Source of the DNA: Nitrospirota bacterium
GTDB lineage: Bacteria; Nitrospirota; UBA9217
Length of the DNA stretch: 64,000 nucleotides
Direction of reading: 5' to 3'
Assembly (NCBI GenBank): GCA_963751455.1
Contig: CAVVUN010000001.1
Coordinates: forward strand, 480,001 to 544,000
The position numbers and the translations under genes were made by a program. The notes under the pieces are model-generated. The model searched no databases, was not told the origin of the DNA, and was given only the letters and a program-made list of their open reading frames with translations. Position 1 is the first letter of the stretch, and each line of letters begins with the position of its first letter. Positions 1,122 to 62,708 of this stretch are shown one piece after another.

Positions 1122-1210
1122 CAAATGCAAATTGAAAGTTCCAAATTGGAAATTGGAAATTTGTTGTTATGGCGGAGGCCATATATTTATTTGAATTTTG
1201 CACTTTGCAA
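1122..1210. repeat. Inverted heptamer tandem arrays (CAAATTG/GAAATTG ... TTTTGCA)
   Basis: gcaaatgcaaattgaaagttccaaattggaaattggaaattt ... atttgaattttgcactttgcaat; a single arm of the same family lies at 45836-45862. Confidence 0.75.
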
Positions 1211-1252
1211 TAGGGGGTTTCCCCCCTTTCAGGCTCTCCAGGTTTCCGGAGG

Positions 1253-1684
1253 TTAATCTTCTATCTTTCCCTCTTCAAGCTTGCCGGTGACCCGGGCAAC
1301 TTTATCGAGGATGCCGTTCACAAAGGCGCCGGACTCCTCGGTCCCGTACTTCTTGGCTATTTCTATGGCCTCATTGATGGTGACGCTCGTAGGAATATCG
1401 ATCCGATAAAAAATTTCGTAAACCGCCATTCTCAGCACATTCCGATCTACGACGGCCATGCGGTCGAGGCTCCAGTTTTTGGCATTTGAATGGATCAGAT
1501 CGTTTATCTTGGCGAGGTACTTATACGTCCCCTTGACGATTTCCTCGGCAAAAGCCTTGACTTCATCGTCCGGTTCCTGTTCAGCCCAGAAATGCTTCAG
1601 GACGGTAGCCGAAGGTTTTTCTTTTCTGATATCGAGTTGGAAGAGTATCTGAAGCGCATACTCCCTGGCCTTGCGTCGCTTCAT
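1253..1684 (-). CDS. nusB: Transcription antitermination factor NusB
   Basis: MKRRKAREYALQILFQ...DRNVLRMAVYE...INEAIEIAKKYG...FVNGILD. Confidence 0.97.
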   Translation of the reverse strand: MKRRKAREYALQILFQLDIRKEKPSATVLKHFWAEQEPDDEVKAFAEEIVKGTYKYLAKINDLIHSNAKNWSLDRMAVVDRNVLRMAVYEIFYRIDIPTSVTINEAIEIAKKYGTEESGAFVNGILDKVARVTGKLEEGKIED

Positions 1685-1691
1685 AAAGAGG

Positions 1692-1850
1692 ACCAGACCC
1701 CAAATGACAAGCACCAAGAAAAAATAAGCATCAAATGGTAAGCACTAAATCCGAAATAAGCGCCAATAATCAAGCGCCCGGTTCCAAACGTTCTGAAATC
1801 TGGACATTCGAGTTGGGACTTTATTTGGAATTTGGGATTTTGGAGATTTG
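1692..1850. repeat. Inverted heptamer arrays (CAAATGA/CAAGCAC/TAAATCC ... GGAATTT/GGATTTT)
   Basis: 7-nt periodic arms of opposite polarity filling the ribH-nusB spacer. Confidence 0.7.
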
Positions 1851-1865
1851 TTCTATGGAATTTTT

Positions 1866-2336
1866 TCATTTGCCCAGTTGTTTCATCAGATTTGCCATTT
1901 CGATTGCCGAAACCGCCGCGTCCCAGCCTTTGTTTCCGCTCTTTGTGCCGGCGCGCTCGATCGCCTGCTCGATGGTATCGGTCGTCAGCACGCCGAATAT
2001 GACGGGCAAACCGGTTTCCAGTGAGACCGCTGCAACACCCTTGCTGACTTCAGCGCTTACATATTCAAAATGAGGAGTGGCTCCCCGGATCACTGCTCCA
2101 AGGCAGATGACGGCGTTGTACTTTTTTGAGAGGGCCATGGTCCTCGCCGCCAGCGGAACTTCGTAAGACCCAGGCACCTTGGCGATTTCTATGTCGCCGT
2201 CCGCTACGCCGTGCCGCTGCAATCCGTCGAGGCAGCCGTCCAGCAGCCTGCTCGTAATAAAATCATTAAACCGTGCGGCAACGATGCCGAACTTGAGTCC
2301 CTTCGCTGAAAGATCTCCCTCAATCATTTTAGGCAT
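1866..2336 (-). CDS. ribH: 6,7-dimethyl-8-ribityllumazine synthase
   Basis: ARFNDFIT...VPGSYEVP...[15 protein letters not shown]...GNKGWDAA; start MPKMIEG at 2336. Confidence 0.97.
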
Positions 2337-2355
2337 GCGGTTCCTCCGTAAACAT

Positions 2356-2429
2356 TGGCATAGCGCATAGTGCATGGCGCATAGTTTAAAATTTTAACGC
2401 CTAGCACTATGCTCTTTGCGCTCTGCGCC
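2356..2429. repeat. Inverted heptamer arrays (GCGCATA ... TATGCGC family)
   Basis: tggcatagcgcatagtgcatggcgcatag ... ctagcactatgctctttgcgctctgcgcc; same family at 7987-8251, 35836-35909, 51414-51489 and inside carB. Confidence 0.85.
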
Positions 2430-2437
2430 TCATTGCA

Positions 2438-3643: not shown

Positions 3644-3658
3644 AAAATCACCCCATTC

Positions 3659-3755
3659 TGGACCAAGGCAACCGCCTGCACCCAGCGGTTACGAGTGGTA
3701 TCGCGAGTGCAGGGTGTGTTGCCGTTATCAACGCCGACATGGTCGGCTCGCTCCA
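3659..3755. repeat. TGGA-type REP doublet carrying a 42-bp micro-insert (3676-3717)
   Basis: tggaccaaggcaaccgc[insert]gttgccg...aacgccgacatggtcggctcgctcca; near-identical copy at 8616-8738, and a copy at 48091-48251 whose first hairpin is empty. Confidence 0.9.
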
Positions 3756-3762
3756 TAATTAA

Positions 3763-4401: not shown

Positions 4402-4444
4402 TTATCCTCAAGGTTTCCGTCTATTACGCTACACAGATGACCTG

Positions 4445-5862: not shown

Positions 5863-5877
5863 TAAATCTCCTTAATT

Positions 5878-5996
5878 AGCCATGGATAAACACGAATTAC
5901 ACGGATTAAACCGAATATTTCAATGTCGTATGTTTTAATAACGGCGAAAATAGACAAAGAAAAGCTTTTTCCGTGGCATCCGTGCAAATCCGTGGC
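5878..5996. repeat. Inverted 9-mer arrays (CACGGAT.. / ATCCGTG..)
   Basis: gccatggataaacacgaattacacggat ... tccgtggcatccgtgcaaatccgtggc; same family at 17566-17826. Confidence 0.8.
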
Positions 5997-6007
5997 AAAA
6001 TACCCGC

Positions 6008-7967: not shown

Positions 7968-8007
7968 AATAAACTCCGAAAGAAGCCGCCTAGAGCAGAG
8001 CGCCTAG

Positions 8008-8205
8008 TGTAGTGTCTCACAAACGACTGGTGTTATCAGCAAGGCTAAAGCCTTGCCCTACAAGTTTGGCTGCGGCGTACTGCTGCGCTATGCCGGAACA
8101 GCAGCAACCCTAAAGGGTCGCCCTACAAATTCATCAGCAAATATTTATGCGAAGATAAGTTTTCGATGAAATTATCATAACACCGTCCATTTAAGAGACA
8201 CTACA
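8008..8205. mobile_element. MITE with TGTAGTGTCTC terminal inverted repeats and CTAG on both sides, containing two GTAG-type REPs, inserted into a heptamer array
   Basis: ctag|tgtagtgtctcacaaacgactggtgttat ... ataacaccgtccatttaagagacactaca|ctag. Confidence 0.85.
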
Positions 8206-8277
8206 CTAGCGCAAAGCATAAATTTTCTACGCCATGCGCCATGCGCTATGCCGGCTTACCGTGCGTCATGCGTCTTA

Positions 8278-8615: not shown

Positions 8616-8738
8616 TGGACCAAGGCAACCGCCTGCACCCAGCGGTTACGAGTGGCATCGCGAGTGCAGGGTGTGTTGCCGTCCCATTGACCATCTGAAA
8701 TTCATAAACTAAAACGCCGACACGGTCGGCTCGCTCCA
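8616..8738. repeat. TGGA-type REP doublet with 42-bp micro-insert (8633-8674)
   Basis: Near-identical to 3659-3755, with a longer spacer. Confidence 0.9.
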
Positions 8739-9410: not shown

Positions 9411-9492
9411 GTTCAACCTCTCTTAGAAGTGTCAGAGTATAAGAGTATCAGCGTGTAGACCTGACAGCGTGTCAATTTACTACGCTTTAACT

Positions 9493-9629
9493 TTGATGCA
9501 TTCGTAAGAAGTCAGAAAACACCCAATTTCGTCATACCGGCGAACGCCGGTATCTAGTCTTTTCAATAAGTTCGATAACCACTGGACCCCGGTTTTCACC
9601 GGGGAGACGACTTTTTACGAGATCATCAA
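9493..9629. mobile_element. MITE (TTGATG..TCGTAA.AAGTC ... GACTTTTTACGA..CATCAA) with 8-bp flanking direct repeat CTTTAACT, carrying a REP doublet and nested in a heptamer array (9426-9681)
   Basis: Direct repeats at 9485-9492 and 9630-9637; near-identical copy at 55581-55717. Confidence 0.88.
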
Positions 9630-9686
9630 CTTTAACTCTATGATACTATGAATCTATGACACTCTGACACTTTAAGACTCACTGTA

Positions 9687-12010: not shown

Positions 12011-12105
12011 CTCACGCTAAGCCGCCAAGACGCAAAGGAAATCTTTAAATTCTGAATTAAACCCAACGATCTGCTTTTCTTTGCGAACTTTGCGCCTCAG
12101 CGTGG
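12011..12105. repeat. Inverted 8/9-mer arrays (CGCAAAG / CTTTGCG family)
   Basis: cacgctaagccgccaagacgcaaag ... ctttgcgaactttgcgcctcagcgtg; left arm repeated at 29658-29683. Confidence 0.75.
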
Positions 12106-13144: not shown

Positions 13145-13287
13145 TGCCCGCGTTGCTGATACAACGGATTTGATCTTTTTTGCACATCCACTTTGCGTCC
13201 TTGAACGATATTTATTGACCCGTCTAAGGCGTTCGCTCGCTCGCGCAAACTCGGTCTGCGGCCTCAGACAGTGCGCGTTCACGTCGG

Positions 13288-13366
13288 GTCATTTCGAGCA
13301 ACACGAGAAATCTTGTGCTGATCAAATAAGTACGAACCTAAGAGTTCTCCCTCTAGTCGAAATGAC
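13288..13366. repeat. GTCATTTCGA...TCGAAATGAC REP doublet
   Basis: Copies at 17659-17731 and 36822-36915. Confidence 0.8.
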
Positions 13367-13418
13367 AAAAACACACTATGAGTCGAAGCATCTTAATTAT
13401 TTCTATAATCGCAATAGA

Positions 13419-15869: not shown

Positions 15870-17552
15870 TTATTTCATGAGTTTGTTCAGCGTTATTTCA
15901 AACGCTGCGCACGGCATGCCGATCTGCTTGAGTTCGAGCACTTGGGGGCGGACCTCGCCGATATGGCCGAGCCGGACGTCGCCCGCCATCACCGCTCCGC
16001 ACCTACCCTGCAGAAACAGGGGATGTTCGGCAGGTTCCAGCCTGTATTCTATCCCGAGATAATAGAGTAAAACGTCAAGGAAGGAATGCATTTCCGAAAA
16101 ATTGGCGGTTGGATGCGACACAAGCGCGCCGAGATCGAGGTCTGTCCGGGACCCCATATTTTCCGAAGGATCGAACACCGCTACTTCACCAAGCTCAAAT
16201 ATCCTGTGCGGATAAAAGGCCTTGGAACTGGCGTTCTCAACGTTCAGAAGAGAAGGTATCACGCGGTTCCTGAGAACAGAATATGCAAGCGACATCACGT
16301 TGTCCACTTCAATAAGCTTCTCGCCTGAAGGCATCGCGTACTCAAGCTCTTCCCTCGAACAGAGAATGTTCGACATGATTTCCTGGAACCCGGAGCCTAT
16401 CATATAATCCCGGACAGTATCGGAAAGCAGTTCGATGCGGGACAGGGACCCCACCGTCGACTGCTCCGGCATCACAGGCTCGAAGGAATCGTACCCCCTG
16501 CTGATCGCATAATCCTCCACAAGATCCATCGGGTGCATGATGTCGTCGCGGTAGGCAGGGACTATTATCGTTACCTTGCCGCCCGCACCGCTCACCGTAT
16601 GTCCGTAGGCAGCCAGGTGCTTCTTCACATCTTCAAACGATACCGCCTCCCCGAGCCCGGCGGAAAAGCTTGCAAGGGGAATCCTGAATTTGCCGGACGT
16701 ATCGTATGGGAACGAGATCTTTTTCCCGGCCTCGGTTTCATACGGATAGCTGACGAGAACAGGCTCTATTTCCGCGCCGCGATCATAGAAGCTCGCGGCC
16801 AGGATGTTCAGGGTAAGGACCGTCATACGCAGGTCCGTACCCGTAACCTCGATGAGCACAGCTCTTGTCGCTGGCTTAACTTCGCCGATTTCCCTGCTGT
16901 TGATTATGGGAGGAAAGGAAAGCGCGCGGCCCATGCCGTCCATAAGAACAGGATATTTGGAAAACGGTTTAACGATTCCGCCGTACTCTATCCCCTTCGG
17001 ATGGCGTTCCAGTATCTCGGCAAGCGTTAGCTTCTGATCCATGCCGAGGGGCGTGAAGGAAACAGAAGAGGGCTCGGCAAGCCGGTACTCGACCGGAAAC
17101 ACGATCCGGTTCAGCTCGTAAATCCCGATCGATACGGTGCTCCGTTTTCTTCCGTATATTTCCGCAAGCTTGTCCTGGCTCTGGATCATCTGCGCCAGCA
17201 CGTCCTCATTCATTCGGATATCCTGGGCAGTGCACGCCGCGATATAGGGCCTGACAGCCTTCATTTCCCTGGACACGCGGATTTCGCGGGTCGCCTTCCT
17301 GCCGTGCTCGAAAAACGGATACTCTTCCGGCTTTCCCGCGAGAGACATCCGGATCTGCCTGGCGATTCCCTCGGACGACCAGAGATCGGGCCTGTTGCTG
17401 TCCGACAGCTCGACCTTCATGTCATCTGTCTCGGCGTTGTACTCCTTGAGCTCTGCCTTGGCCAGCATAAGCTTTTTCTCGAGAACGGCTATCGAGAGCT
17501 TCTTGCCGATGAGGGCGTCGAGATCGCGTTTTTTTATATCAATTGTTGGCAT
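15870..17552 (-). CDS. pheT: Phenylalanyl-tRNA synthetase beta subunit, short archaeal/eukaryotic-type
   Basis: NRPDLWSSEGIAR, SFPPIINS, YRDDIMHPMDLVEDYAI; 560 aa with no B2 OB domain and no B8 anticodon domain. Confidence 0.93.
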   Translation of the reverse strand: MPTIDIKKRDLDALIGKKLSIAVLEKKLMLAKAELKEYNAETDDMKVELSDSNRPDLWSSEGIARQIRMSLAGKPEEYPFFEHGRKATREIRVSREMKAVRPYIAACTAQDIRMNEDVLAQMIQSQDKLAEIYGRKRSTVSIGIYELNRIVFPVEYRLAEPSSVSFTPLGMDQKLTLAEILERHPKGIEYGGIVKPFSKYPVLMDGMGRALSFPPIINSREIGEVKPATRAVLIEVTGTDLRMTVLTLNILAASFYDRGAEIEPVLVSYPYETEAGKKISFPYDTSGKFRIPLASFSAGLGEAVSFEDVKKHLAAYGHTVSGAGGKVTIIVPAYRDDIMHPMDLVEDYAISRGYDSFEPVMPEQSTVGSLSRIELLSDTVRDYMIGSGFQEIMSNILCSREELEYAMPSGEKLIEVDNVMSLAYSVLRNRVIPSLLNVENASSKAFYPHRIFELGEVAVFDPSENMGSRTDLDLGALVSHPTANFSEMHSFLDVLLYYLGIEYRLEPAEHPLFLQGRCGAVMAGDVRLGHIGEVRPQVLELKQIGMPCAAFEITLNKLMK

Positions 17553-17565
17553 GTTTTAATTTTTT

Positions 17566-17826
17566 GCCACGGATGAACACTGATGGCCACGGATGTTTAA
17601 TTTAAAAAATTATTGGTGGTTTCTATACAGTCGTAACAAGTCGAAAACCACCAGTTTTGTCATTTCGAGCGGAGCGAGAAATCTTGCTTTTCCAATCGGA
17701 TGAAAGACCTCTCACTTCGGTTCGAGGTGACACATCCGGGCTTTTACGAAAACATCATACCTAAGACATACAATTTGCGGCTTATTCACTCGCTGTTAAT
17801 CCGTGTTATCCGTGTAGATCCGTGGC
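17566..17826. repeat. Nested element: 9-mer inverted arms enclosing degenerate MITE ends (about 17623-17757), which enclose a GTCATT REP doublet
   Basis: gccacggatgaacactgatggccacggat ... tcgtaacaagtc ... gtcatttcgagc ... cttttacgaaaacatca ... atccgtgttatccgtgtagatccgtggc. Confidence 0.78.
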
Positions 17827-17840
17827 AAGTAATCTTTACT

Positions 17841-19905: not shown

Positions 19906-20089
19906 TCACAAAACAATCTAATCCAAAAACCTTTTAACCACGGAGAACTGAGAGCACGAAGAAGTTCAGAATCAGATTTATTTGCGCTTTTTGTTTATGC
20001 CCGCGTTTTGGCAACAGCAGGGTATGCATCTTTGCGGCAATGTCTCCTGCATTTTTTAATCTAAACTGCTGATTCTTGTAGCGGGCTTC

Positions 20090-20760: not shown

Positions 20761-20835
20761 AGGATACACAATGCACGATCCATCATAGCTGCTTTTTACA
20801 TGCATCATGCATCATGAATCCTGCATCCTGCATCT
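20761..20835. repeat. Heptamer arrays (TGCATCA/TGCATCC)
   Basis: atgcatcatgcatcatgaatcctgcatcctgcatc, with a degenerate opposite arm upstream. Confidence 0.7.
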
Positions 20836-21883: not shown

Positions 21884-22044
21884 GGAGCGATATTACCACA
21901 ACATGAACGAAATTCCAATTAACAACTGTAGAGAGTACACCTATTACTGTGCAATTCCAGTCAGAGGAGACCAATTGACAAATACTGGTTGTAACTTGCA
22001 CGCGCGTGTGAGGGGCCGGGCGGGTTCTTCGCCCGCGACCCTCT

Positions 22045-24177: not shown

Positions 24178-24198
24178 CGACGCGATGGTTGGAATTTA

Positions 24199-29631: not shown

Positions 29632-29840
29632 TCCCTTAACCCTCTTAAAACAATTTTCGCGCAAAGCCGCCAAGACGCAAAGAAAGGATTTCTGAGCGTT
29701 GCCTCGTTAAGTCTTTTTTATGCCTTTTGCTTGCACCCAGCGTTTATGAGACCCTTGATTCCCGTCTCCCGTCTCTCAGGAAGATGGTACTATAACGGGT
29801 CTATGCTTCACCCTTGATTACCGTCTCGCGGATAATAAAG

Positions 29841-29876
29841 CCCCCTCACCCTACCCTCTCCCCTCTGGGGGCGAGG
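29841..29876. repeat. CCCCTCACC..CCTCTCCC..GGG.GAGG REP-like palindrome
   Basis: Related copy at 50414-50463. Confidence 0.7.
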
Positions 29877-29889
29877 ATAAAAGCGGGGT

Positions 29890-31023: not shown

Positions 31024-31059
31024 CTGGATTCCTAATAAAACCTCAAAACTGGAACTTTT

Positions 31060-31143
31060 ATCCGCAGATTTCGCAGATTGACGCAGATTGAAAGCAAGAG
31101 TCAGGTTCTATCTAATCGGAGAAATCTGCGTAATCTGTGGATA
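31060..31143. repeat. Inverted 9-mer arrays (CGCAGAT / ATCTGCG family)
   Basis: tatccgcagatttcgcagattgacgcagat ... aatctgcgtaatctgtggata; same family at 46801-46882. Confidence 0.85.
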
Positions 31144-35835: not shown

Positions 35836-35909
35836 GGCAGAGCGCATAGCGCAAAGGGCATAGCGTTAAGCCATCTACTCCCTACGCTCTGCGCCATGCG
35901 CTTTGCCCT
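35836..35909. repeat. Inverted GCGCATA-family heptamer arrays abutting the xerD stop codon
   Basis: ggcagagcgcatagcgcaaagggcatagcg ... ctacgctctgcgccatgcgctttgccct. Confidence 0.85.
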
Positions 35910-36789
35910 ACCCTCTCGGATGATACTTCTCGTGGATCTGCCTGAGCCGCTCGCGCGATACGTGCGTATAGATCTGCGTTGTCGAGATATCGGAATGGCC
36001 AAGCATAGCCTGCACTGCCCGCAGGTCAGCCCCATTGTCCAGCAGATGCGTAGCGAAAGAGTGACGCAGGGTGTGCGGCGATATATTTTTTTCAATGCCC
36101 GCCCGTGTCGCGCATTGTTTGATCCTCTCCCAGAACATCTGCCGCGTCAGGCCCCTTCGCTGGGAACTGATAAACAGCATTTCGGAATCTTTTCCTTTGA
36201 GCAGGCCCGGCCGGGCCCGGCTGAGATATTCCCGGACCACCTCTATTGCCGCCTCTCCAATCGGAACTGCGCGCTCCTTGGATCCTTTTCCCAGAACGAT
36301 AAGAAAACCACGTTCAAGATTGATGTCCCCTATCTTCAGCCCTACCAGTTCGCTTACCCGAAGGCCGGTTGCGTAGAGCACTTCGAGCATTGCCTTGTCG
36401 CGCAGCCCGAGCACGGTTGAGGTATCGGGCTGTTCAAGGAGCGCTTCGACATCCGCCGAGGACAGGCTTTTCGGCAGCCTTTTCCATCCGCGCGGCGTCT
36501 CGACATTCACAGTCGGGTCCGTTTTCGCAAGACTGTCGATCAGCAGATATTTGTGCAATCCTCTGATTGCCGCCAGATTTCGCGCCGAGGAACGCGGAGA
36601 AAGCCCAGCCGCCGAAAGACCGGCAAGGAATGAAACCACGTCCTGATGGCTGATTTCATCCGGCTGTTTTGTTTTCATATGGTGGAAGTACCTGCTGAGG
36701 TCGCGTTCATACGACCGCACGGAATTGGCCGCAAGTCCCTTCTCAACGGAAAGGAAATTCAAAAATCTCTGAAGGAGATCGTCATCCAT
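35908..36789 (-). CDS. xerD: Tyrosine recombinase XerD
   Basis: LYATGLRVSEL, GKGSKER, HTLRHSFATHLL.NGADLR, LGHSDISTTQIY. Confidence 0.93.
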   Translation of the reverse strand: MDDDLLQRFLNFLSVEKGLAANSVRSYERDLSRYFHHMKTKQPDEISHQDVVSFLAGLSAAGLSPRSSARNLAAIRGLHKYLLIDSLAKTDPTVNVETPRGWKRLPKSLSSADVEALLEQPDTSTVLGLRDKAMLEVLYATGLRVSELVGLKIGDINLERGFLIVLGKGSKERAVPIGEAAIEVVREYLSRARPGLLKGKDSEMLFISSQRRGLTRQMFWERIKQCATRAGIEKNISPHTLRHSFATHLLDNGADLRAVQAMLGHSDISTTQIYTHVSRERLRQIHEKYHPRG

Positions 36790-37026
36790 ATTTAATATAA
36801 CTTTGAAATGCGCCGCGTTTCGTCATTTCGAGCAGAAGCGAGAAATCCATGAATTGACGCGCCGTGGTATCCCGGTGGCGGACCTTTAAAGATTTCTCCC
36901 GCTGGTCGAAATGACAAAAAAACTCTTTACTAACTTGATTGTAAGTGAATGTTATTGAAAATGCAAGTGATGGGAAGAAATTGGATGGCTGGTTTAACGT
37001 AACTGCCAAGAATGGAAAAACCATTC

Positions 37027-37128
37027 TCACACGAAGGCACAAAGCACACAAAGAAGATCAAAAGTAAGTTAACTTTGTTTAAACATAAGAATCAAAGCTT
37101 TTCTTCGTGTCTTCGTGTCTTTGTGTGA
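37027..37128. repeat. Inverted 8-mer arrays (CACGAAG / CTTCGTGT)
   Basis: cacacgaaggcacaaagcacacaaag ... cttcgtgtcttcgtgtctttgtgtg; relatives at 46915-46940 and 55752-55830. Confidence 0.8.
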
Positions 37129-37157
37129 ACATGAATGTTATGTCTTTGTTTCTCGTC

Positions 37158-40953: not shown

Positions 40954-41099
40954 AATAATAGTTGCAAAAGGTCACGGTTACGAGGCTCGTTTCGTTGTTC
41001 GGTTATGTTGTTCCTGCAGTTTCTATACGTTATTGTTGGACGCTATACGATACGGGCGTCGTCACCACTAGACGAATGACGATCTTTCCCGTTCAAACA

Positions 41100-42456: not shown

Positions 42457-45400
42457 TTAGCTGCTGGAAGCCGTCCCATGATACTCCTGTAGTGATTTTA
42501 CCTGTAGATGGTTTCTCTTTATCGCAGCGATGCCGCGCACGGCTGCCTTCGCCGCGGATATTGTCGTAAAATAAGGGATGCCCTTCATAAGCGTCGTGCG
42601 CCTGATCGAGTAGGAGTCCTTTTGGGACTGGGCCCCGTGGACTGTATTAATGACGAAATCGATCTTCATGTCCGTGATCTGGTCGACGATGTGCGGCCGG
42701 CCTTCTGTCACTTTGTTCACGCTTTCAACGATGATTCCCCGCTGTCTCAGATAGTCAGCTGTGCCCTTTGTAGCCACGATCTCGAAGCCGGCCTTCTCGA
42801 GTCCCTGCGCCACTTCGAGCAGCCCGGCCTTGTCCTTGTCCTTGACGCTCAGGAACACCCGCCCGGAAACCGGCATTGGGTTCCCGGCTGCAATCTGTGA
42901 TTTCGCGAAGGACATGCCGAAATCCATGTCGATTCCCATTACTTCGCCGGTCGATTTCATTTCAGGACCAAGCAGCGTGTCAACGCCCGGGAACTTGGCA
43001 AAGGGAAATACCGCTTCCTTTACCGATATATGCTTGGTTGTGACTTCCCTGGTAAAACCAAGTTCTTGAAGCGTTTTCCCTGCCATAACGCGCGCCGCAA
43101 GTTTCGCAAGCGGCACCCCGGTCGCCTTGCTTACGAAAGGCACGGTCCGGGAGGCCCTGGGATTCACTTCGAGAACGTAGACCTGGCCTTCCTTGAACGC
43201 AAACTGTATGTTCATCAGTCCGATGACGCCGAGTTCGAGCGCGAGCGCCCGGGTCTGACGGTCAATCGTCTGGATGACGTCGGCCGGAAGAGAAAACGGA
43301 GGAAGCGAGCAGGCCGAATCGCCCGAATGCACTCCGGCTTCCTCGATGTGCTCCATGATGCCCGCAACAACAACTGTCTTTCCGTCGGATATCGCGTCCA
43401 CATCGATCTCGATCGCGTCTTCGAGATACTTGTCGACGAGTACGGGCCGTTCGGGAGAGGCTTTAACCGCGCGCGTCATGTAATTGCGGACGCTCTCCTC
43501 GTCATAGACAATTTCCATGGCGCGGCCGCCGAGCACGTAGGAAGGACGGACCATGACCGGGTACCCGATCCCGTTCGCGGCCTTGACAGCTTCGTCGCAG
43601 GACACCGCGGTCCCGCTCTCCGCCTGCAGAAGCCCCAGTTTCTCGAGCAGCTCCTTGAACCGCTTCCGGTCCTCGGCCCTGTCAATGCTGTCCGGCGTTG
43701 TTCCCAGGATCTTAACACCCGCCTGCTCCAGCGGGACCGCGAGTTTGAGCGGCGTCTGCCCCCCGAACTGCACGATCACGCCGTCCGGCCTCTCCCGGTG
43801 TATAATATGTAAAACGTCTTCGAGTGTCAAGGGTTCAAAATACAGACGGTCGGAGGTATCGTAGTCCGTGCTGACCGTCTCCGGGTTGCAGTTCACCATG
43901 ATCGTTTCGAACCCGTCTTCTTTGAGCGCGAAGGCGGCATGCACACAGCAGTAGTCGAACTCGATGCCCTGTCCGATCCTGTTCGGTCCGCCCCCAAGGA
44001 TCACGATCTTTTTGCGGTCAGTAGGATTTGCCTCACATTCGGCACGCAGGCTGAAGCCTGCGGCTACCCCTTCACGACTCCCGCCTTCCGCTTTTCCATG
44101 CGCCATGCCCTCCGCAGCATGCTCTAATTTATAGAACGGCTTCTCATACGTGGAATACAGATACGGGGTATGCGCCTCGAATTCGGCCGCGCAGGTGTCC
44201 ACGGTCTTGAACACGGGTATGATGCCCAGTTCATATCGTTTTTTACGCACTGCCTCTTCAGTGGTCGTGAACAGCTTGGCGAGCCTGCGGTCGGAAAAGC
44301 CCTGCTCCTTGGCCCTCCTGAGCATATGGTCCAGGGAAAGCGACTTGTCGGACAGTATCTGCGCTCCGTTTTCCCGAAGCTCCTTTTCACTTTCCGTAAT
44401 CTGTTTGATCTGGTGCAGGAACCAGGGGTCGATCTTCGATAGCCTGAACACCTCCTCGATCGTCATCCCCTCCCTGAACCCGTCGGCGATGTACCATATC
44501 CGCTCCCAGTTAGGAACGCTTATCTTCTGCCGGATATCGTCTATCCGCTGTTCGCCATCGCCGTCCCGGTCCCTCCGCGATTCAAAACCGTAGCGGTCTA
44601 TCTCGAGCGAGCGAAGCGCCTTCTGGAGCGCTTCCTTGAAGGTCCTGCCGATCGACATTGCCTCGCCGACCGACTTCATCTGCGTGGTGAGCGTGGCGTC
44701 CGCCTGCGGAAATTTTTCGAAGGCAAAGCGCGGGAACTTGACGACCACGTAATCGATGGTCGGCTCGAAGGAGGCCGGCGTCGCTTTCGTGATGTCGTTC
44801 GTAATCTCATCAAGCGTAAAGCCGACGGCCAGTTTCGCTGCAATCTTCGCGATCGCGAAGCCGGTTGCTTTGGAGGCGAGCGCCGAGCTGCGGGAAACGC
44901 GCGGGTTCATCTCGATAACGACCATCCTGCCGTTGTCCGGGTTCACGGCGAACTGGATGTTCGATCCCCCGGTGTCCACGCCGATCTCCCGAATGATCCT
45001 GAGAGACGCGTCGCGCATGATCTGGTATTCCTTGTCAGTCAGCGTCTGCGCCGGAGCCACGGTCACGCTGTCGCCGGTATGGACGCCCATCGGGTCGAGA
45101 TTTTCAATAGAGCAGACGATCACCACGTTGTCTTTGGTGTCGCGCATCACCTCGAGCTCGAATTCTTTCCACCCCATGACGGATTCCTCGACCAGGATCT
45201 GCCGGACAGGGCTTGCCTCGAGGCCCCGTGTGATCAGTTCGGTGAACTCCTCGCGGTTGTACGCAATACCGCCGCCTGTACCTCCCAGCGTAAAAGCAGG
45301 CCTGAGGATGGCCGGGAAGCCGACCTTCTCCAGGATTTCATACGCGTGGTCCAGGCTGGTTGCGAAACCGCTTTTCGGCACTTGCAGCCCGATGGTCTCC

Positions 45401-45807: not shown

Positions 45808-45874
45808 CTATTCCTTCCTGAAATTTGTTCATCAAATTTGCAATTTGCACTTTGCAATTTAAAATGCTTCAGGC

Positions 45875-46768: not shown

Positions 46769-46900
46769 TGTTAAAAAATCAAGTAAATAATCTTTTCTTT
46801 GTCCACAGATTACGCAGATTCCACGGATTAAACTGAATTTACGGTTTTAAAATCTGCGCCCATCGGCGTAATCTGCGGATAAATTTTGAAGTGCACAAAA

Positions 46901-48090: not shown

Positions 48091-48251
48091 TGGACCAAGG
48101 CAACCGCGTTGCCGTCTTAATAAAACGCCATTACACCCTGCACTCGCACTTGCGCAATGCCTGGACTCATTGTCGTACCATCTCGCTGAGAAACTCGAGA
48201 CGGGAATCAAGTACCTCATAAACGCTGGGCGCAGGCGGATGGCTCGCTCCA
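48091..48251. repeat. TGGA REP doublet with an empty first hairpin and a reversed, itself interrupted micro-insert (48133-48234) in the second hairpin
   Basis: tggaccaaggcaaccgcgttgccg ... gccatt[acaccctgcactcgc...ctcataaacgctgggcgcag]gcggatggctcgctcca. Confidence 0.85.
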
Positions 48252-48253: not shown

Positions 48254-49138
48254 TCAAAATCTATCCCTGACCTTCCCATTCATGTCCGCCACTTCCGCGC
48301 TCACCTTGTCGCCGTCAACAGTCACGAGAATATAATGATTGAAGCCCCCGAATTCATCCAATGCGTACACCGGGGCCCCGGCGCCTCCTGTGATGACATG
48401 GTTGATGCCGTCCACGGTCTTCCTCTGATAGAAGTGTTCATGGCCTGCAAACACCGCTTTTACCCCGTTCTTCACGAACAGCGCTTCCAACCTGTCCCTG
48501 TCGCCGGGGTGCTTGTCAAGGCTCTCGCCCGCATGTCTTCCTTTACCCGGTACGGTATACATCGGATGATGGAGAAACACGAATTTGTGCTTCAGTTTAG
48601 AACTCGTGAGTAATGCCTCGAGCCATGCGTACTGTTCGCCGGAGATCTTTTTTTCCTGGCCGCTTATATATGAATCAAGAACAACTAACAGGGAATTGCC
48701 GGCTGTAAACGAATAGTACAGTTCATTCCCCGGAAGGTCCACCTGCTCCTTATACGTTTGTTCACTCGACCGCACCTCAGGATGTGCGTCATGATTCCCG
48801 ACAGTCAGAAAATACGGAACAGTAACAGCTTTTGACAATTGCCAGAAATTGTCCCAGAGCTGTACGTTACCGGGCTTTGCTATCACATCCCCTGTATTCA
48901 CGATAAAAACCGGTTTCCGCTCCATTGCCATGGCAACCAGCTTTTTATATGTGTCGTCACCCGACCGGTTGTCGCCCAGTACGACAAAAGAGAATTTCCC
49001 CTGGATATTCGCCAGTTCAGACAGCTTTTCCTTGATGTGCTGATTTTGAGCGGCCAACGATGAAGTTGGCAAAAGGAACCCGCATAACAAAGCAACAAGA
49101 ATGATTTTATTCCGAACTCCAAACTCCGAACTCCGCAC
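48254..49138 (-). CDS. Exported calcineurin-like metallophosphoesterase
   Basis: GDNR, NTGD, VGNHD, HHP, GHEH motifs; probable GTG start overlapping the pyrC stop. Confidence 0.85.
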   Translation of the reverse strand: MRSSEFGVRNKIILVALLCGFLLPTSSLAAQNQHIKEKLSELANIQGKFSFVVLGDNRSGDDTYKKLVAMAMERKPVFIVNTGDVIAKPGNVQLWDNFWQLSKAVTVPYFLTVGNHDAHPEVRSSEQTYKEQVDLPGNELYYSFTAGNSLLVVLDSYISGQEKKISGEQYAWLEALLTSSKLKHKFVFLHHPMYTVPGKGRHAGESLDKHPGDRDRLEALFVKNGVKAVFAGHEHFYQRKTVDGINHVITGGAGAPVYALDEFGGFNHYILVTVDGDKVSAEVADMNGKVRDRF

Positions 49139-50398
49139 TATAATTTTCCTCTCACAATCGTCTGCACAGCTTTTCCCTTCATTTTCCACCCGTCGAATGG
49201 CGTATTTTTTGATTTTGACTTCAACGCGGAGGCTGCCACAGTCCACTGGATATCCGGATCTATGATCGTAATATCCGCATCAGCGCCCTCGGATAATGTT
49301 CCTTTATCGATCTTGAGCACTGTTGAAGGGTTCAGGTTGAGTTTTCGAACAGCATCGGCAAGCGGAAGAACGCCTTCGTCCACGAGCTTGAGAGTGAGAC
49401 CGAGGGCGGTTTCGAGTCCGACAATGCCGAAGGGCGCGAAATCGAACTCTCCTGATTTCTCGTCCATGGCATGAGGGGCATGGTCCGTGGCAATAACGTC
49501 GATGGTTCCGTCTTTGAGGCCCTGCTTGATCGCGGCCACGTCCTCCGAGGTCCGAAGGGGCGGGTTCATTTTCGCCATCGTATTGTACCCCCGCACGGCT
49601 TCCTCGGTCAAAGAAAAGTAGTGCGGGCAGGTCTCAGCGGTAACCTTTACTCCCCGCGACTTGGCGTCCCGGATCAGCCGGACCGACCCCGCGGTGCTTA
49701 CATGCGCGATATGCAGCCTGCACCCGGTAAGTTCCGCCAGAGCGATGTCTCTGCCGGTCATGACTTCCTCCGCGGCCCTCGGTATTCCGCGGAGACCCAG
49801 TTGGGTCGAGACTATTCCCTCGTTCATCACGCCGGTGCCGGAAAGCGTTTTATCCTCGCAGTGCGAGACGAGCACCATGTCGAATATCTTGGAGTACTCC
49901 ATGGCACGCCTCATGATCCCTGCGGTCATGACCGGCCTGCCGTCGTCCGAAACAGCGCAGCAGCCTGCCTGGCGAAGCTCTGCCATCTCGCTCAGTTCTT
50001 CGCCCTTGGAGCCTTTCGTTATCGCTCCTATCGGTAAAACGCGTGCAGCTGCGTTCTTTGCCTGCGAAAGAATGAATTCAGTGACAGAACGATTGTCGTT
50101 TACCGGGTCCGTGTTCGGCATGCAGCAGACGGTAGTGAAGCCGCCTGCCTTTGCCGCGGCTGTTCCGGTTTCGATCGTTTCCTTGTACTCGAATCCCGGT
50201 TCCCGCAGATGCACATGCATATCGATCAGCCCGGGTACGACCAGTTTAGCGGAGGCATCGATCACCTGCGCACCGTTGGCTGATATCGAACCCTGTCTTG
50301 CCGACTTTCGCGATCCTTCCGTCGGAAACAAGGATATCGAGTTTGGCGTCAAGATTGTTGGCCGGGTCGATGATGTGACCGTTTTTAATTAAAATCAT
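49138..50398 (-). CDS. pyrC: Dihydroorotase, with an apparent frameshift near 50295
   Basis: True N-terminus [33 protein letters not shown] at 50398 is out of frame with ...[14 protein letters not shown]...ATDHAPH. Confidence 0.9.
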
Positions 50399-50469
50399 AA
50401 GGACCTTTTTTTGCCCCCTCACCTTTGTCCTCTCCCCGGAGGGGAGAGGGTAGGGTGAGGGGGAATTAA

Positions 50470-51400
50470 TTACGCTTCCGGCTTACCGCCGCCTGACAGC
50501 AGGAACATGACCGCCATACGGACCGCCACCCCGTTAGTCACCTGGTCCAGGATCACGGCGTACTGTCTGCCACTTCTGAAGATATTTCAACTCCGCGATT
50601 CATGGGTCCGGGATGCATAACCATCGCGTTCGTGCTCCGGCTCTTTCAAGCCGTGCTTTGTTCAATCCGTATAGTCTGGCATATTCCCGGACTCCCGGGA
50701 AGAGTCCGGCAGCCTGGCGCTCGAGCTGCAGCCGCAGCATCATTACAGCATCAACGCCCTCGACAGCTTTGTCCATGTCGTAATAAACCTGAGCTCCCAT
50801 GCTCTCGATACCCGGAGGTATCATCGTCGGGGGACCGCATACCCGGACCTTGGCGCCCATGATGCCGAGCCCGTAGATATTCGAGCGGGCCACCCGGCTG
50901 TGCGCAATGTCCCCGACGATGGCGACGGTAAGCCCTTTAAGCTTTCCGAACTTTTCCCGTATCGTGAACATGTCGAGCAGGGCCTGGGTCGGATGTTCAT
51001 GGAAACCGTCCCCTGCATTGATCACTGAACTCTTCAGCCGCTTTGACAGGAATTCCGGGGCGCCCGAGCAGGCGTGACGCACTATGATAATATTGCACTT
51101 CATCGCCTCGATGTTGCGCGCGGTGTCCAGAAGCGTCTCACCCTTGACAACGCTGCTGGTCGAGGTAGAGATATTGATCACGTCCGCGGACAGCCTCTTT
51201 CCAGCGAGTTCGAACGAGGTGCGCGTCCTGGTGCTCGCCTCATAGAACAGGTTGATGACGGTCTTGCCGCGAAGAGCAGGAACTTTTTTGATGTCCCGCT
51301 CGGACACGTCCTTGAAAGTCCCGGCCGTATCAAGCAGGAGCTTGATCTCGTCCGGACTCATGCCTTGTATGCCGAGCAGATCTTTGGAACTGAGGGTCAT
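50470..51400 (-). CDS. pyrB: Aspartate carbamoyltransferase, with two apparent frameshifts near 50630 and 50565
   Basis: [26 protein letters not shown]; downstream frames encode [13 protein letters not shown] and [14 protein letters not shown]. Confidence 0.9.
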
Positions 51401-51413: not shown

Positions 51414-51489
51414 CGCATGGAGCATGGCGCTAAGCGCATAGCGTTGCTTTTTGCTTTTTCGCTATGCCCTATGCGCTTTGCGCTATGCG
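51414..51489. repeat. Inverted GCGCATA-family heptamer arrays
   Basis: cgcatggagcatggcgctaagcgcatagcg ... cgctatgccctatgcgctttgcgctatgcg. Confidence 0.85.
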
Positions 51490-52043: not shown

Positions 52044-52072
52044 AGAGAAACTCCGGTTAGGCCGCTAGCTAG

Positions 52073-52142
52073 GGTAGCCGCAAGCTTCAGCTTGCGTGTT
52101 CAATTTCGGCAGTTCTTCGCTAGGCTAAAGCCTGCGGCTACC
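52073..52142. repeat. GTAG-type REP doublet (GGTAGCCGCA..TGCG / GC..GCGGCTACC)
   Basis: Same REP at 44044-44068, 61544-61644 and 62633-62708. Confidence 0.85.
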
Positions 52143-52190: not shown

Positions 52191-52311
52191 AAAAAAAAAC
52201 CTTCTCCCGGTGCGGGAAGAAGGTCGCGCGTGCATGCATCAAGCGTTATTCCGCTTTTATGTTTTTTCATGTACAACCCTTCCTGGCCTCTCGGGACCAG
52301 ACTTAAAGAGG
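52191..52311 (-). promoter_or_regulatory. PyrR-binding attenuator leader
   Basis: CTTTAA-GTCTGGTCCCGAGAGGCCAG binding loop (52276-52311), followed by terminator CCTTCTTCCCG..CGGGAGAAGG-T9. Confidence 0.88.
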
Positions 52312-52421
52312 ATTTCTTACGGGGTTAAAATACATCAAGTCGCAGAAACTGTCAAGAAGTTTTTGTCGTCATTCGTCCCTCATCCCTCAGAGATTCATCG
52401 CCTTTACGTCCCCTCCGGTTC

Positions 52422-55500: not shown

Positions 55501-55896
55501 ACCACACCCTGCATTCGCGGCGTAGCACTCATGACCGCTGGGTGCAGGCAGAGGACACAGCATTTGAGAAAGAATCATAATTGATGAAATCGTAAGAAGT
55601 CAGAATAAGCCCTATTTCGTCATACCGGCGAAAGCCGGTATCCAGTCTTTTCAATGAGTTCAATGTTTACTGGACCCCGGTTTTCACCGGGGAGACGACT
55701 TTTTACGAATGCATCATAATAATTGCTGAAACCGTAATAATTCAAAATTTTCACACGGAGCCACGGAGCCACGGAGAAATAGCGCTGAAAACAAAGATGG
55801 TTTTCTTTGTGTCTTTGTGGCTTTGTGTGAGACTAGTTTTTACGAATGAATCATAATAGAAATTGTCCTTCTCTGTGCCTCCGTGTCTCCGTGGTT
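55501..55896. repeat. Nested repeat cluster: 9-mer arms enclosing a 44-bp micro-insert and two tandem MITEs (55581-55717 with a REP doublet; about 55724-55853 with 8-mer arms)
   Basis: acc[acaccctgc...gggtgcag]gcagaggacacag ... ctctgtgcctccgtgtctccgtggtt; the first MITE is near-identical to 9493-9629. Confidence 0.85.
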
Positions 55897-55910
55897 AAAA
55901 TTAGTGTTTG

Positions 55911-59773: not shown

Positions 59774-59801
59774 GGTTTCCTTTCCTCTCCCCCTAGGGGG
59801 C

Positions 59802-59939
59802 CTGGCAGGCTGTTGAAAAACCCTCCGCTCACCCTTCGACAGGCTCAGGGCGAACGGAGGGAGCCTTGAAATCCTTGCTTTTATCCGTTCGTGGTGAGCC
59901 TGTCGAACCACTCAAACGACTTTTTCAATAACGTGCTAG
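59802..59939. mobile_element. MITE with CAGGCTGTTGAAAAA-type TIRs enclosing a CTTCGACAGGCTCA REP doublet
   Basis: ctggcaggctgttgaaaaa ... tttttcaataacgtgctag (15/19 match). Confidence 0.75.
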
Positions 59940-60158
59940 ACCTTATCCGGCAACGCCGGCCTGAAGTTACTGAATGTTTTCGATCGTAACCATAATATTT
60001 AAAATATAGTTAGCAGAACGTTGTTTGTCAAAAAGATCGTACAAGTGGCTTAAGCCAATCGTTCGATAAACAGGAGTAAACAGCAGGAAAACAAATGCCG
60101 CGCCGGGTGTGATTTGAATCACGGCAACTATGAACCAAATGAAGGAAAAATCAATACC

Positions 60159-61535
60159 ATGAGTGTTGTTGCAACAGACCCCGTACTCCAGGTCGACCGT
60201 CGGAAGGATTACCGTGTCAGGAAGACGCTGCGGTACTCCCTGCATGAAGGCGCTTTTTCGGCCGCCATGATCGGGTTCGGGGAGTCTTTCTTTGCTGCAT
60301 ATGCGCTTTTCCTCAAAGCCACTACTTTCCAGGTCGGCATGCTGAGCGCTCTGCCGCAGGCAATCGGTTCGCTTTGCCAGTTTTTTTCCAACCTGCTGAT
60401 CCGCCGCCTCGGTTCCCGTAAAAAACTGGTCGTTTGGGCAGCGCTGCTCCAGGCCCTCGTGTACATACCGGTAGCCCTTGTTTTTTTCTTCGGCCATTTC
60501 AAGGTATGGCACCTCATTTTCTTTGCCTCTCTATACTGGTCCTTTGGAATGATATTGAGCCCGTCCTGGAACAGCTGGATGGGAGAACTCGTGAACGAAA
60601 ACCGGCGGGGCGCGTATTTCAGCCGCAGGACAAAGATCACGGGCATGGCAACATTCCTCGCGCTCCTCTCTGCCGGGTATATCCTGGAGCAGTTCGCGCA
60701 TGCGGGCATAAAAAAACAGTATATCGGGTTTACCATCATCTTCGCGATAGCGTTCGCAAGCCGTATCGCGTCCGTGGTCTTCCTTTCCAAACTATACGAA
60801 CCTCGTTATGTGGTCCCCCGGGAAGCGGAATTCGGCTTTCTTGATTTCCTGCAGAACAAGGAATTCACGAACTACCGGACGTTCGTTATGTATCTGGGCT
60901 TTATGAACCTGGGCGTGTTCCTGTCGGCGCCTTTCTTTACCCCGTACATGCTCACTGATTTGAAATTAAGTTATATTACTTTCACGCTGGTAAATGCGTC
61001 CGCGATCATAACGAAGGTGTTGTCGATGAGGGTCTGGGGTTGGGCGACCGACCGCTTCGGCGCACGCCGCGTGCTCAAGCTTGCCGGTTTTCTCATGCCC
61101 GTGGTGCCGGTGCTGTGGCTCGCCTCGCGGGACGTCAGGTGGCTGGTCGCGATCCAGGTCTATTCGGGCTTTGTCTGGGGAGGTTTCGAGATCGCGACCA
61201 TCAGCTTCATTTTCGATACCACCACGCCTTCCAAGCGGGCAACCTGCGTGGCCTATTATAACGTGATCAGCGGGTTCACCCTGATCAGCGGGGCGATGCT
61301 CGGCGGCTTCATTGTACGGTATAATCACGTGTTCGCGTCAAGCTACCTGCTCGTCTTTCTCCTGAGCGGCGTACTGCGGTTCGGGGCGTCATTCCTGCTG
61401 CTGGGGCGGCTGAAGGAAGTACGTACGGTCGAAAGGATAGGCTATCCGCAGCTGTTCATGAAAGTCATCAGGAGCATGCCAACAATGGGACTCTTATATG
61501 AGCTGATTCCGTTCAGGCGGGAAGCGGAGGACTAA
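60159..61535 (+). CDS. MFS transporter
   Basis: About 12 hydrophobic segments; PSWNSWMGELV...RRGAYFS; WG..TDRFG.RR. Confidence 0.85.
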   Translation: MSVVATDPVLQVDRRKDYRVRKTLRYSLHEGAFSAAMIGFGESFFAAYALFLKATTFQVGMLSALPQAIGSLCQFFSNLLIRRLGSRKKLVVWAALLQALVYIPVALVFFFGHFKVWHLIFFASLYWSFGMILSPSWNSWMGELVNENRRGAYFSRRTKITGMATFLALLSAGYILEQFAHAGIKKQYIGFTIIFAIAFASRIASVVFLSKLYEPRYVVPREAEFGFLDFLQNKEFTNYRTFVMYLGFMNLGVFLSAPFFTPYMLTDLKLSYITFTLVNASAIITKVLSMRVWGWATDRFGARRVLKLAGFLMPVVPVLWLASRDVRWLVAIQVYSGFVWGGFEIATISFIFDTTTPSKRATCVAYYNVISGFTLISGAMLGGFIVRYNHVFASSYLLVFLLSGVLRFGASFLLLGRLKEVRTVERIGYPQLFMKVIRSMPTMGLLYELIPFRREAED

Positions 61536-61543
61536 AGGCCCTT

Positions 61544-61644
61544 AAACGCACCCTGAAGGGTGCGGCTACCTGGGATCATCAATGTGCTGCCTTTTGGCAG
61601 CCGCAGGACTTCGGCGAGCTCAGTCGAGTCGCTTTAGCCCTGCG
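61544..61644. repeat. GTAG REP doublet with 23-bp palindromic micro-insert (61608-61630)
   Basis: Direct-orientation twin without the insert at 62633-62708. Confidence 0.85.
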
Positions 61645-61675
61645 AAATATCGCCTTTTCATTCTATTGGCTTCGC

Positions 61676-61951
61676 TCATCGCTCACCTGAAAACCTCTGA
61701 GCAGCGCGTGCTCGTGCCTTGGCTTTCTCTTTTGCGCGGGTCCTCGGTGTTGCATTCGTCTCAAGCGAGTTCAGAAGGTTTTTGGAAACTGCCGCTACTT
61801 CATCAACGGCTGCAGCAAATGCAGGTTCGTTGCTTTTCGATGGCTTGTTGAAGCCGCTCACTTTTCTCACAAATTGCAATGCAGCCGCATGAATCTCTTC
61901 ATCCGTGACAGGCGGTTCAAAGTTGAACAGGGGTTTAATGTTTCTACACAC
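61676..61951 (-). CDS. DUF2277-family small protein
   Basis: MCRNIKPLFNFEPPVTDEEIHAAALQFVRKVSG. Confidence 0.88.
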   Translation of the reverse strand: MCRNIKPLFNFEPPVTDEEIHAAALQFVRKVSGFNKPSKSNEPAFAAAVDEVAAVSKNLLNSLETNATPRTRAKEKAKARARAAQRFSGER

Positions 61952-61965
61952 AAGTTGCCTCCATG

Positions 61966-62520
61966 CTATGAGCAATGATGGTTACGGTCTTTCTGGTCCG
62001 GTAATTGGTCTGCCAGGACCTTTCGTATCGTACTTGTAATAAAGTTGTTATTGGGAATAAGAACTGTTTCTGAGTCCGTCTCGAGAGTCACATATCTCAA
62101 ATTAATATCAATGACCTTTCCTCTGATGCCGCTTACATCGATTGTATCCCCCAAATAAAATGGCGCATAAACGATGACCATCAAACCCGCCACAAGATTG
62201 GAAATGGCGTCTTTTAATGCAAGGCCAAGGGCAAATCCGGTCAGGCCCAGCCCGGCAACCAGGGCTGTTATGTTAACACCCACAGTGCCCAAAGCGGAAA
62301 TCGCGCCTGCCCCTACAATTACGGTATTAATGCTGCCGGCAATGAGCCGGTAGACGCGGTTTGCCTGCACGGTCTTGCGTTTCCCAAGTCGTCGAAGCAG
62401 CGAAGAAACAAACCAACCCGTAAATATAAATACGGAAAGGACAAACAAGGCGAGCAACATTCTTTCGGAGTAATCCAGGAATATTTTTTTGGTGTAATCC
62501 ACGAAGAGTTCTTTAAGCAT
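61966..62520 (-). CDS. Short MscS-family mechanosensitive channel
   Basis: LVAGLGLTGFALGLALKDAISN, PFYLGD, IPNN. Confidence 0.85.
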   Translation of the reverse strand: MLKELFVDYTKKIFLDYSERMLLALFVLSVFIFTGWFVSSLLRRLGKRKTVQANRVYRLIAGSINTVIVGAGAISALGTVGVNITALVAGLGLTGFALGLALKDAISNLVAGLMVIVYAPFYLGDTIDVSGIRGKVIDINLRYVTLETDSETVLIPNNNFITSTIRKVLADQLPDQKDRNHHCS

Positions 62521-62632
62521 AGTGTTCTCACGAGTAAACCGGACTTTTCGTTTAACTTCTTTTTTTACTCTATGTCACTATTTTATCTCGAATCGCTTTA
62601 ATAGTGATGACTGTCATAGCTCTCGCAGCATA

Positions 62633-62708
62633 AACGCACCCTAAAGGGTGCGGCTACCTGGTTTATAATTAATGTGATACGTTTTGGTAGCCGCAGGCTT
62701 TAGCCTGC
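62633..62708. repeat. GTAG REP doublet
   Basis: acgcaccctaaagggtgcggctacc ... ggtagccgcaggctttagcctgc. Confidence 0.85.

Follow-up and report, generated by a model that had tools for sequence, protein, structure and literature searches.

Small repeats layered on other repeats have been reported before. The small dispersed repeats (SDRs) of the Nostocaceae, the subject of a 2008 study by Elhai, are reportedly very short (21–27 nt), fixed in length and structured, and are said to nest in heptamer repeats, in mini-transposons and in themselves; RNA-mediated insertion is said to have been proposed for them. These SDRs are cited in a passage of PMC5861425. REPINs are described as inserted into or beside REPINs (Bertels and Rainey 2011, PMC3116915), dimers of repetitive extragenic palindromic (REP) sequences as lying inside inverted palindromes (Di Nocera 2013, PMC3733652), and insertion sequences (ISs) as targeting REPs, a case of mobile DNA favouring existing palindromes (Tobes and Pareja 2006, PMC1525189). 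Passages on Geobacter describe paired octa- and heptanucleotide repeats with tandem units on opposite strands and ISs at a fixed distance (Aklujkar 2009, PMC2700814; PMC2996986; PMC3543383), as well as non-random co-occurrence of repeats in spacers (Aklujkar 2010, PMC2996986), and those on the Ssn nucleases with their NTS/SRM repeats show cleavage of single-stranded hairpins and not mobilisation (Chenal 2025, PMC11893778). Here we analyse the inverted-repeat hairpins in a 64,000-nucleotide stretch of Nitrospirota DNA (the window; C1:480001-544000 of genome G000, which spans 5.72 Mb in 15 contigs and is 100% complete and 5.4% contaminated). A first-pass annotation had read them as one layered system without earlier description; layering is already reported in PMC3733652, PMC3116915, PMC2996986 and PMC1525189, and "one system" proves too strong because the layers have separate cognate genes.

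The hairpins of the window form three separate layers, and we consider it likely that these are, first, hairpins belonging to small gene cassettes, secondly, DDE-type miniature inverted-repeat transposable elements (MITEs) filled with such hairpins, and thirdly, micro-inserts that seek out hairpins. We count about 31 repeat loci, which belong to more than 10 families (Table 1), in line with the roughly 30 inverted-repeat elements of more than 10 families counted initially. The surrounding genes are those of the rib, nik, pheST, pyr and trehalose sets, and the window also carries a small mobile island and a group II intron. Repeats of at least 25 bp occupy 27/39 spacers of 30 bp or longer, and the window ranks third of 157 windows for repeat-carrying spacers (genome median 39%). 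The window is therefore dense, but the pattern is genome-wide, with repeats in 1091/2671 spacers overall. Arrays of period 7–10 number 934 in the spacers compared to 40 in shuffles, and an arm model finds 786 inverted pairs in the genome, 83 of them inside one MITE family, compared to 3 in shuffles. Our first repeat masks missed eroded arms and were replaced by more sensitive ones. An Rfam scan returned only the group II intron and, just under the cut-off, a PyrR-binding leader (52191-52313, minus strand; 52.8 bits against a cut-off of 54).

In the first layer, the hairpin classes recur as flanks of small genes. Within G000, inverted 8–10-mer arms bracket the GxxExxY genes and 7- or 9-mer arms the four-helix-bundle genes. 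SRM-type hairpins border two GIY-YIG genes, CCCC palindromes border a DUF559 gene, and RAYT genes have GTAG REPs or family D as their flanks. The GTAG doublets and family D are inverted REP doublets whose REP flanks a RAYT gene, as in REPIN/RAYT systems, and both of the RAYT proteins scanned (2/2) score above the NF047646 cut-off; these are only part of the window's families, however, and the arm hairpins differ in having periodic arms and other genes. Similarly, SRM-like hairpins flank single-domain GIY-YIG genes (C7:13701, C2:424967 and L375, of which the first two are split by MITEs and the third is intact), as described for Ssn nucleases, the likeness to SRM being matched by eye and by a short tag rather than by the full published pattern. 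Unlike in the described system, the SRM doublets of G000 are also carried within MITEs, and TTCGAC doublets flank a second GIY-YIG family, as seen in relatives at 2/12 of the loci shown. The association with the two remaining gene families is widespread: among family genomes, GxxExxY genes are found in 46/60 and four-helix-bundle genes in 42/60 (E 1e-20), and when the 30 best loci were fetched for each, inverted arm flanks (score at least 24) were present at 29/30 GxxExxY loci and 26/28 four-helix-bundle loci (2/30 having been dropped at contig ends), compared with 22/500 control genes. The arm period is 8–11 in 27/29 GxxExxY loci and 7 in 22/26 four-helix-bundle loci. A blind search for arm-bracketed reading frames yielded mostly housekeeping genes whose junctions on either side were occupied. 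The location inside an rRNA gene that defines 23S rRNA intervening sequences with a four-helix-bundle ORF was not found, since the window's arms lie at protein-gene junctions, and the cassette flanks printed for G000 and relatives continue into protein-coding DNA.

From these flanks, each hairpin class is likely to represent gene-less copies of a small one-gene cassette. The proteins that would mobilise them are RAYTs for the GTAG and GGAG doublets, Ssn-like GIY-YIG proteins for SRM, the second GIY-YIG type for TTCGAC, DUF559 proteins for CCCC, GxxExxY proteins for the 8–10-mer arms and four-helix-bundle proteins for the 7-mer arms. That several mobilisers act in trans, as the first reading of the window proposed, is supported. 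We also observe a GIY-YIG gene at G000:C15:1133832 between copies of another inverted repeat family, with CCCCGTTAGAGA ends, which is found gene-less as well, and in L365 a long 14-nt tandem array of TTCGAC-related units lies immediately upstream of a GIY-YIG gene. The MITEs that split the genes at G000:C7:13701 and C2:424967 are of two different families and enter at nearly the same codon.

MITE families A, B, C and E emerged from an unbiased search for inverted ends with a duplication, and F was added later; all five have terminal inverted repeats, no coding capacity and lengths of 70–300 bp. Their target duplications are of 4, 6, 8, 4 and 5 bp for A, B, C, E and F, exact in 26/30, 23/28, 36/41 and 6/10 copies of the first four; the 78 copies of F were themselves selected on exact duplication. 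The ends of B are common to five full IS1182-like elements (transposase below the curated cut-off) and those of F to three IS1380-like elements (one of two scanned transposases above it), and no transposase partner with matching ends was found in the genome for A, C or E. In their terminal inverted repeats, their fixed duplications and, for B and F, their full-length partners, the families resemble known MITEs of IS1182/IS5-like and IS1380 elements. They differ in that their interiors are swappable hairpins of other families rather than partner deletions: by eye, 21/23 interior types are layer-1 hairpins and not partner fragments, 14/23 fold at z<-3 compared to 4% of random spacer DNA (chance end pairs without a duplication being excluded from the count), and several unrelated interiors occur within one end family, in G000 and in relatives. 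A second difference is their length, phased near 10 bp. A GTDB scan for MITE E (14/64 parts, lengths restricted to 101–161 bp) gave 118 loci in 36 interior clusters, and the phasing is seen across these 36 (Rayleigh p about 1e-5, cluster medians); MITE F has length peaks at 164 and 174–177 bp. Helical constraints act on short transposons. A search of the literature outside subscription journals found no paper on phased, hairpin-filled MITEs.

The inner ends of MITEs B and F overlap the first letters of the cargo, which hints at cargo capture through microhomology. The second layer would consist of short end pairs copied by IS1182-like and IS1380 transposases, with a free interior whose length is apparently held in helical phase; captured hairpins would provide 100–140 bp of filler, subsequently amplified, and insertion would occur regardless of hairpins. 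All four nested composites proposed at the outset are real (nests a–d in Table 1), and their nesting stands. The innermost layer, the REP inside the MITE, is inherited, because a common interior is shared by 24 copies of MITE A and by 19 of MITE B1, so that it represents one event per subfamily rather than a separate event at each locus. An integration host factor (IHF) site in the MITE centres was considered and is unsupported, being present in only a few interiors. At G000:C12:15372-17382 and C8:264991-267001 an IS1182-like element and a MITE are joined in tandem and have moved jointly, as one 2011-bp unit that has a duplication of its own.

The behaviour of these MITEs towards existing hairpins sets them apart from the third layer. 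With the element excised, 9/91 intergenic MITE sites lie inside a hairpin (5.6–7.0 expected); in junction tests the counts are 3/27 vs 34/300 and 13/64 vs 84/700 (pooled 16/91 vs 11–12%), and for MITE F 8/78 vs 78/700. Taken together, 24/169 empty sites are in repeats, where 11–12% is expected, so that the MITEs do not behave as REP-targeting ISs, for which most copies would be expected inside palindromic repeats; the class that does target hairpins here is gene-less and far smaller. Under a wide mask, 33/91 MITE sites fall in repeats, compared to 17.0 expected, a figure that stratification by spacer length and orientation raises to 21.7. A preference of MITEs for hairpins is weak at most, and the data are compatible with survival in neutral DNA.

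The micro-inserts M1, M2 and M3 are 24 nt in 21/21 copies, 31 nt in 25/25 and 41–46 nt in 59, respectively, lengths that were partly set by the search patterns. All three have exact ends and no target duplication, and the preceding base is G in 25/25 M2 and 58/59 M3 copies and G or A in 20/21 M1 copies. With each 12-nt context counted once, the empty site falls within a repeat, an arm or a stem in 13/19 (M1), 19/20 (M2) and 44/53 (M3) cases, or 76/92 distinct sites in total; the corresponding nulls are 16–18% with a short motif and 11%, 33% and 28% for M1, M2 and M3 with a 10-nt target matrix. Among 40 M3 copies hand-picked from eight family genomes, 36 are in repeats, the null here being taken from G000. 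The contrast between MITEs and micro-inserts has a p value of 1e-19. Micro-inserts thus target existing hairpins and repeats, and an early proposal that several mobilisers prefer pre-existing hairpins, to be judged by a genome-wide count of insertions into repeats, is borne out for the micro-inserts, which show the excess, and not for the MITEs, which show no clear one. Arms serve as hosts, as do hairpins of the GTAG, D, SRM, TTCGAC and CCCC types and the micro-inserts themselves, and since all classes are used, recognition is probably by structure plus a short sequence. A unit of ~58 nt, K, occupies the site at which M3 inserts into itself. M2 and M3 have in common a 4-nt leader and a stem closing at the final base; compensatory changes in this stem are confined to one strand, with a C-G to G-C swap in 13/58 and 5/19 sequences. 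M3 is found in 28/61 family genomes and M1 in 9/151 genomes of the phylum. In being very short, fixed in length, dispersed, structured and embedded in other repeats and in themselves, M1–M3 work like SDRs, their closest match, compared by description only; M2 and M3 exceed the length reported for SDRs. Separately, four copies of a ~21-nt TTCGAC-type insert are found inside called genes at G000:C1:697170-705564.

The third layer may be pictured as follows: M1–M3 enter the stem or tip of a hairpin, whatever its class, just after a purine (G in the case of M2 and M3) and leave no duplication, the likely step being ligation into single-stranded hairpin DNA. A small cassette nuclease acting by nick-and-ligate on single-stranded DNA is quite possibly the engine, although we put this at somewhat less than an even chance. 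Genomes with at least three M3 copies carry both GxxExxY and four-helix-bundle genes in 19/19 cases, and 0/14 genomes without GxxExxY reach three copies (p 0.003), figures in which kin are not independent and the arms are also the main M3 targets. An engine of the HUH (RAYT-like) type seems unlikely; two M3-rich but incomplete genomes (88% and 68% complete) have no Y1 match, which weighs weakly against it. Spread by host repair or conversion is less likely still. An engine of RNA and reverse transcriptase (RT) is doubtful, and we similarly think it unlikely that the micro-inserts travel in RNA form and enter structured targets through reverse splicing or reverse transcription, with the help of an RT of group II intron type. 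Such a route fits the absence of a duplication and the strand-specific fold of M2 and M3, which tolerates G-U/G-T pairs, and the genome has several group II RTs, one of them in the window. A G-T wobble also suits single-stranded DNA, however, orientation to transcription is mixed (10:10, 17:32 and 4:12), and M1–M3 have no similarity to the window's group II intron, no clear G-rich strand bias and, over the three copies in the scanned stretch, no Rfam match.

A simpler account would have insertion at random, with survival wherever an earlier element had already made harmless DNA. It fits the MITE data, the MITEs in dead cassette genes (both GIY-YIG and four-helix-bundle reading frames are split by them), and the CarB loop, opened once and then hit again. 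We nevertheless find it improbable as a full explanation, as 145/169 of the larger and more disruptive MITEs lie outside repeats compared to only 16/92 micro-inserts, a contrast that refutes it for the third layer, though it may hold for the second. In addition, arm occupancy declines rather than climbs with free spacer length: in co-directional spacers it is 90/222 at 15–30 bp of non-repeat length and 39/297 at 250–500 bp.

Arms lie at a median of 19 nt from the stop codon, compared to 78 nt for MITEs, and occupied junctions adjoin genes with higher codon scores (0.384 vs 0.325), which may reflect expression or merely age. This clustering at core-operon junctions could be taken to mean that the arms are host-selected RNA elements, stabilisers or processing sites of mRNA, with the flanked genes as passengers, and similar paired repeats in Geobacter are interpreted as regulatory sites in passages of PMC2700814. 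That too is improbable, because neither the family nor the presence of a repeat at a junction is conserved among relatives, because arm period follows the protein family, and because arms are also found in frame within protein loops. In 20 stretches from family-level relatives, the pyr junctions hold different repeat families or are nearly empty, the shortest orthologous spacers being of 6–18 bp; that between carA and a radical SAM gene is 6, 14 and 18 bp in three relatives and up to 221 bp in another. Orthologous spacers therefore vary, and invariance among relatives, which would have spoken against mobility, is not seen. The CarB loop is a hotspot of in-frame insertion, with inserts of varying length in 16/16 aligned relatives, several of them with recognisable 7-mer arms of other families. 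We picture the layer-1 hairpins as collecting at tight operon junctions and displacing one another. A single coordinated system whose mobilisers would all favour hairpin DNA already in place, as first read from the window, is supported by the four deep nests, by the wide-mask count and by the way in which elements have repeatedly displaced one another at given junctions and within the CarB loop, but is highly improbable and for the DDE MITEs largely refuted, given the junction and hairpin tests above, the separate cognate gene of each class and the inherited MITE interiors.

Several points weigh against our three-layer interpretation. The flanking genes show association, from which movement of the hairpins by their cognate proteins is inferred, and we know of no catalytic site in the four-helix-bundle proteins. 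No gene with M1, M2 or M3 as its own ends was seen in G000 among 21 of its 33 Y1 matches and four RT loci, nor was an M1–M3-flanked gene seen at 15 Y1 and 12 GIY-YIG loci of relatives; similarly, the matches listed include no long form of M1–M3 enclosing a gene. The wide-mask excess of MITE sites is 1.5–2-fold (p 0.003 stratified), leaving room for a weak preference or a survival bias, and enrichment at junctions may reflect gene age rather than targeting. Hairpin filler is no general rule, as 12/36 GTDB MITE E clusters fold at z<-3 and 20/36 at z<-2. The gene calls come from our own codon-model caller, and both it and the arm model were trained on G000 itself. The relatives are of family level, with no same-genus genome among those returned and no strain-level pair of filled and empty sites; the best metagenome match has 70–72% amino-acid identity.

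Positions of the individual elements are given in Table 1.

Table 1. Repeat loci of the window; positions count from its first letter, and elements lying inside others are given on the line of their host or directly below it.
Feature	Position	Strand	Remarks
7-mer inverted arm hairpin, four-helix-bundle type	1123..1211		downstream of nusB
Eroded 7-mer arm hairpin, ribH-nusB spacer	1725..1850		edges approximate; 2 other copies; judged by eye
7-mer (GCATAGC) arm hairpin, ribBA-ribH	2356..2427		
REPIN family D (GGAG-type RAYT)	3659..3755	+	identical ends flank RAYT genes C15:1722000 and C9:366087
M3 micro-insert, 42 nt	3675..3716	+	within the D REPIN
9/10-mer arm hairpin, GxxExxY type	5876..6000		
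Nest (a): 7-mer arm hairpin	7987..8251		left arm contains MITE A
MITE A	8008..8205	+	CTAG duplication in left arm; inherited GTAG REP doublet inside
D REPIN	8616..8738	+	contains M3 at 8632-8673
Nest (b): 8-mer arm hairpin	9424..9673		loop contains MITE B1
MITE B1, 133 bp	9495..9627	+	6-bp duplication; IS1182-like ends; SRM doublet inside
8/9-mer arm hairpin	12014..12085		
SRM-type doublet	13287..13367		Ssn GIY-YIG flank type
Nest (c), pheS-pheT: 9/10-mer arms	17564..17826		contains eroded B-type MITE 17625-17756, itself containing SRM doublet
Arm hairpin	19932..20040		M2 at 19994-20024 in right arm
Single 7-mer arm	20798..20834		
Arm remnant, truncated M3 with K inserts, CCCC palindrome	29659..29883		DUF559 flank type (palindrome)
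9/10-mer arm hairpin	31057..31140		
7-mer arm hairpin	35836..35910		
SRM doublet	36821..36916		
8-mer arm hairpin	37026..37129		
Eroded arm-type repeat, pyrK-pyrD	40966..41084		up to 6 other copies
7-mer arm and GTAG REP	44030..44140	-	in frame, within CarB loop
Single 7-mer arm	45826..45865		
9-mer arm hairpin	46802..46883		
D REPIN	48091..48251	+	contains M3 48134-48235 (minus), itself containing a ~58-nt K insert
7-mer arm	49108..49139	-	immediately 3' of pyrC stop; overlaps likely start of next gene
CCCC palindrome	50413..50467		DUF559 flank type
7-mer arm hairpin, pyrR-pyrB	51415..51489		
GTAG REP doublet	52072..52142		same REP flanks RAYT C2:636912
Nest (d): arm hairpin	55501..55896		44-nt M3 55505-55548 (minus) in left arm
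Nest (d) loop: tandem B-type MITEs	55583-55715; 55725-55852		B1 with SRM doublet; B-type with 8-mer arms
Eroded MITE E with TTCGAC doublet	59805..59930	+	second GIY-YIG flank type
GTAG REP doublet	61543..61644		M1 at 61608-61631 (minus) inside
GTAG REP doublet	62631..62731		with right end of MITE E

Several neighbouring features are of interest in their own right. The group II intron (~22040-24190, minus strand) encodes a 437-aa RT and adjoins a brnT toxin gene, and a further copy, 93% identical and with its frame broken, lies at C1:23842-26025. The region 24806-26372 holds a Y1 (TIRYT-like) element that is bounded by 37-bp inverted ends and interrupted by an IS200 copy; several near-identical copies of this element are found elsewhere, and it is followed at 26933-29015 by a pair of AbiEi/AbiEii type whose toxin has an extra WYL domain. 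The pheS and pheT products (15870-19406) are of 521 and 560 aa, with lengths and domains like those of archaea and eukaryotes. In the region 50423-50600 the pyrB frame stops early, at 50600, and pyrB-like coding sequence continues downstream, a possible frameshift or assembly error.

What emerges is a crowded community whose members are mostly of known kinds, two of its parts being poorly described. It is possible, though we hold this only tentatively, that the cassettes with GxxExxY and four-helix-bundle genes make up a class of mobile elements, so far undescribed and transposase-free, that seeds periodic hairpins at operon junctions, and that the 24–46-nt inserts are hyperparasites exploiting single-stranded hairpin intermediates of every class; if so, no structure-targeted insertion element would be smaller than these inserts. 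In the literature outside subscription journals we found no paper that connects periodic arms with genes of these two families, and the supplementary alignments on Geobacter may show the same families; in the Geobacter passages at hand the repeats are interpreted as regulator binding sites, and no GxxExxY or four-helix-bundle link appears. GxxExxY and the four-helix bundle, two large orphan protein families, gain a concrete candidate DNA substrate. G000 separates survival bias from true targeting, in that large MITEs ignore hairpins and tiny inserts seek them, and its MITEs suggest that such elements can arise through capture of filler of helically phased length as well as by internal deletion. 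How SDR-like elements move becomes a testable question, the ends being defined and a target rule and candidate enzymes available, and an enzyme that ligates a 30–40-base payload into hairpins and leaves no duplication would offer a useful lead for editing.

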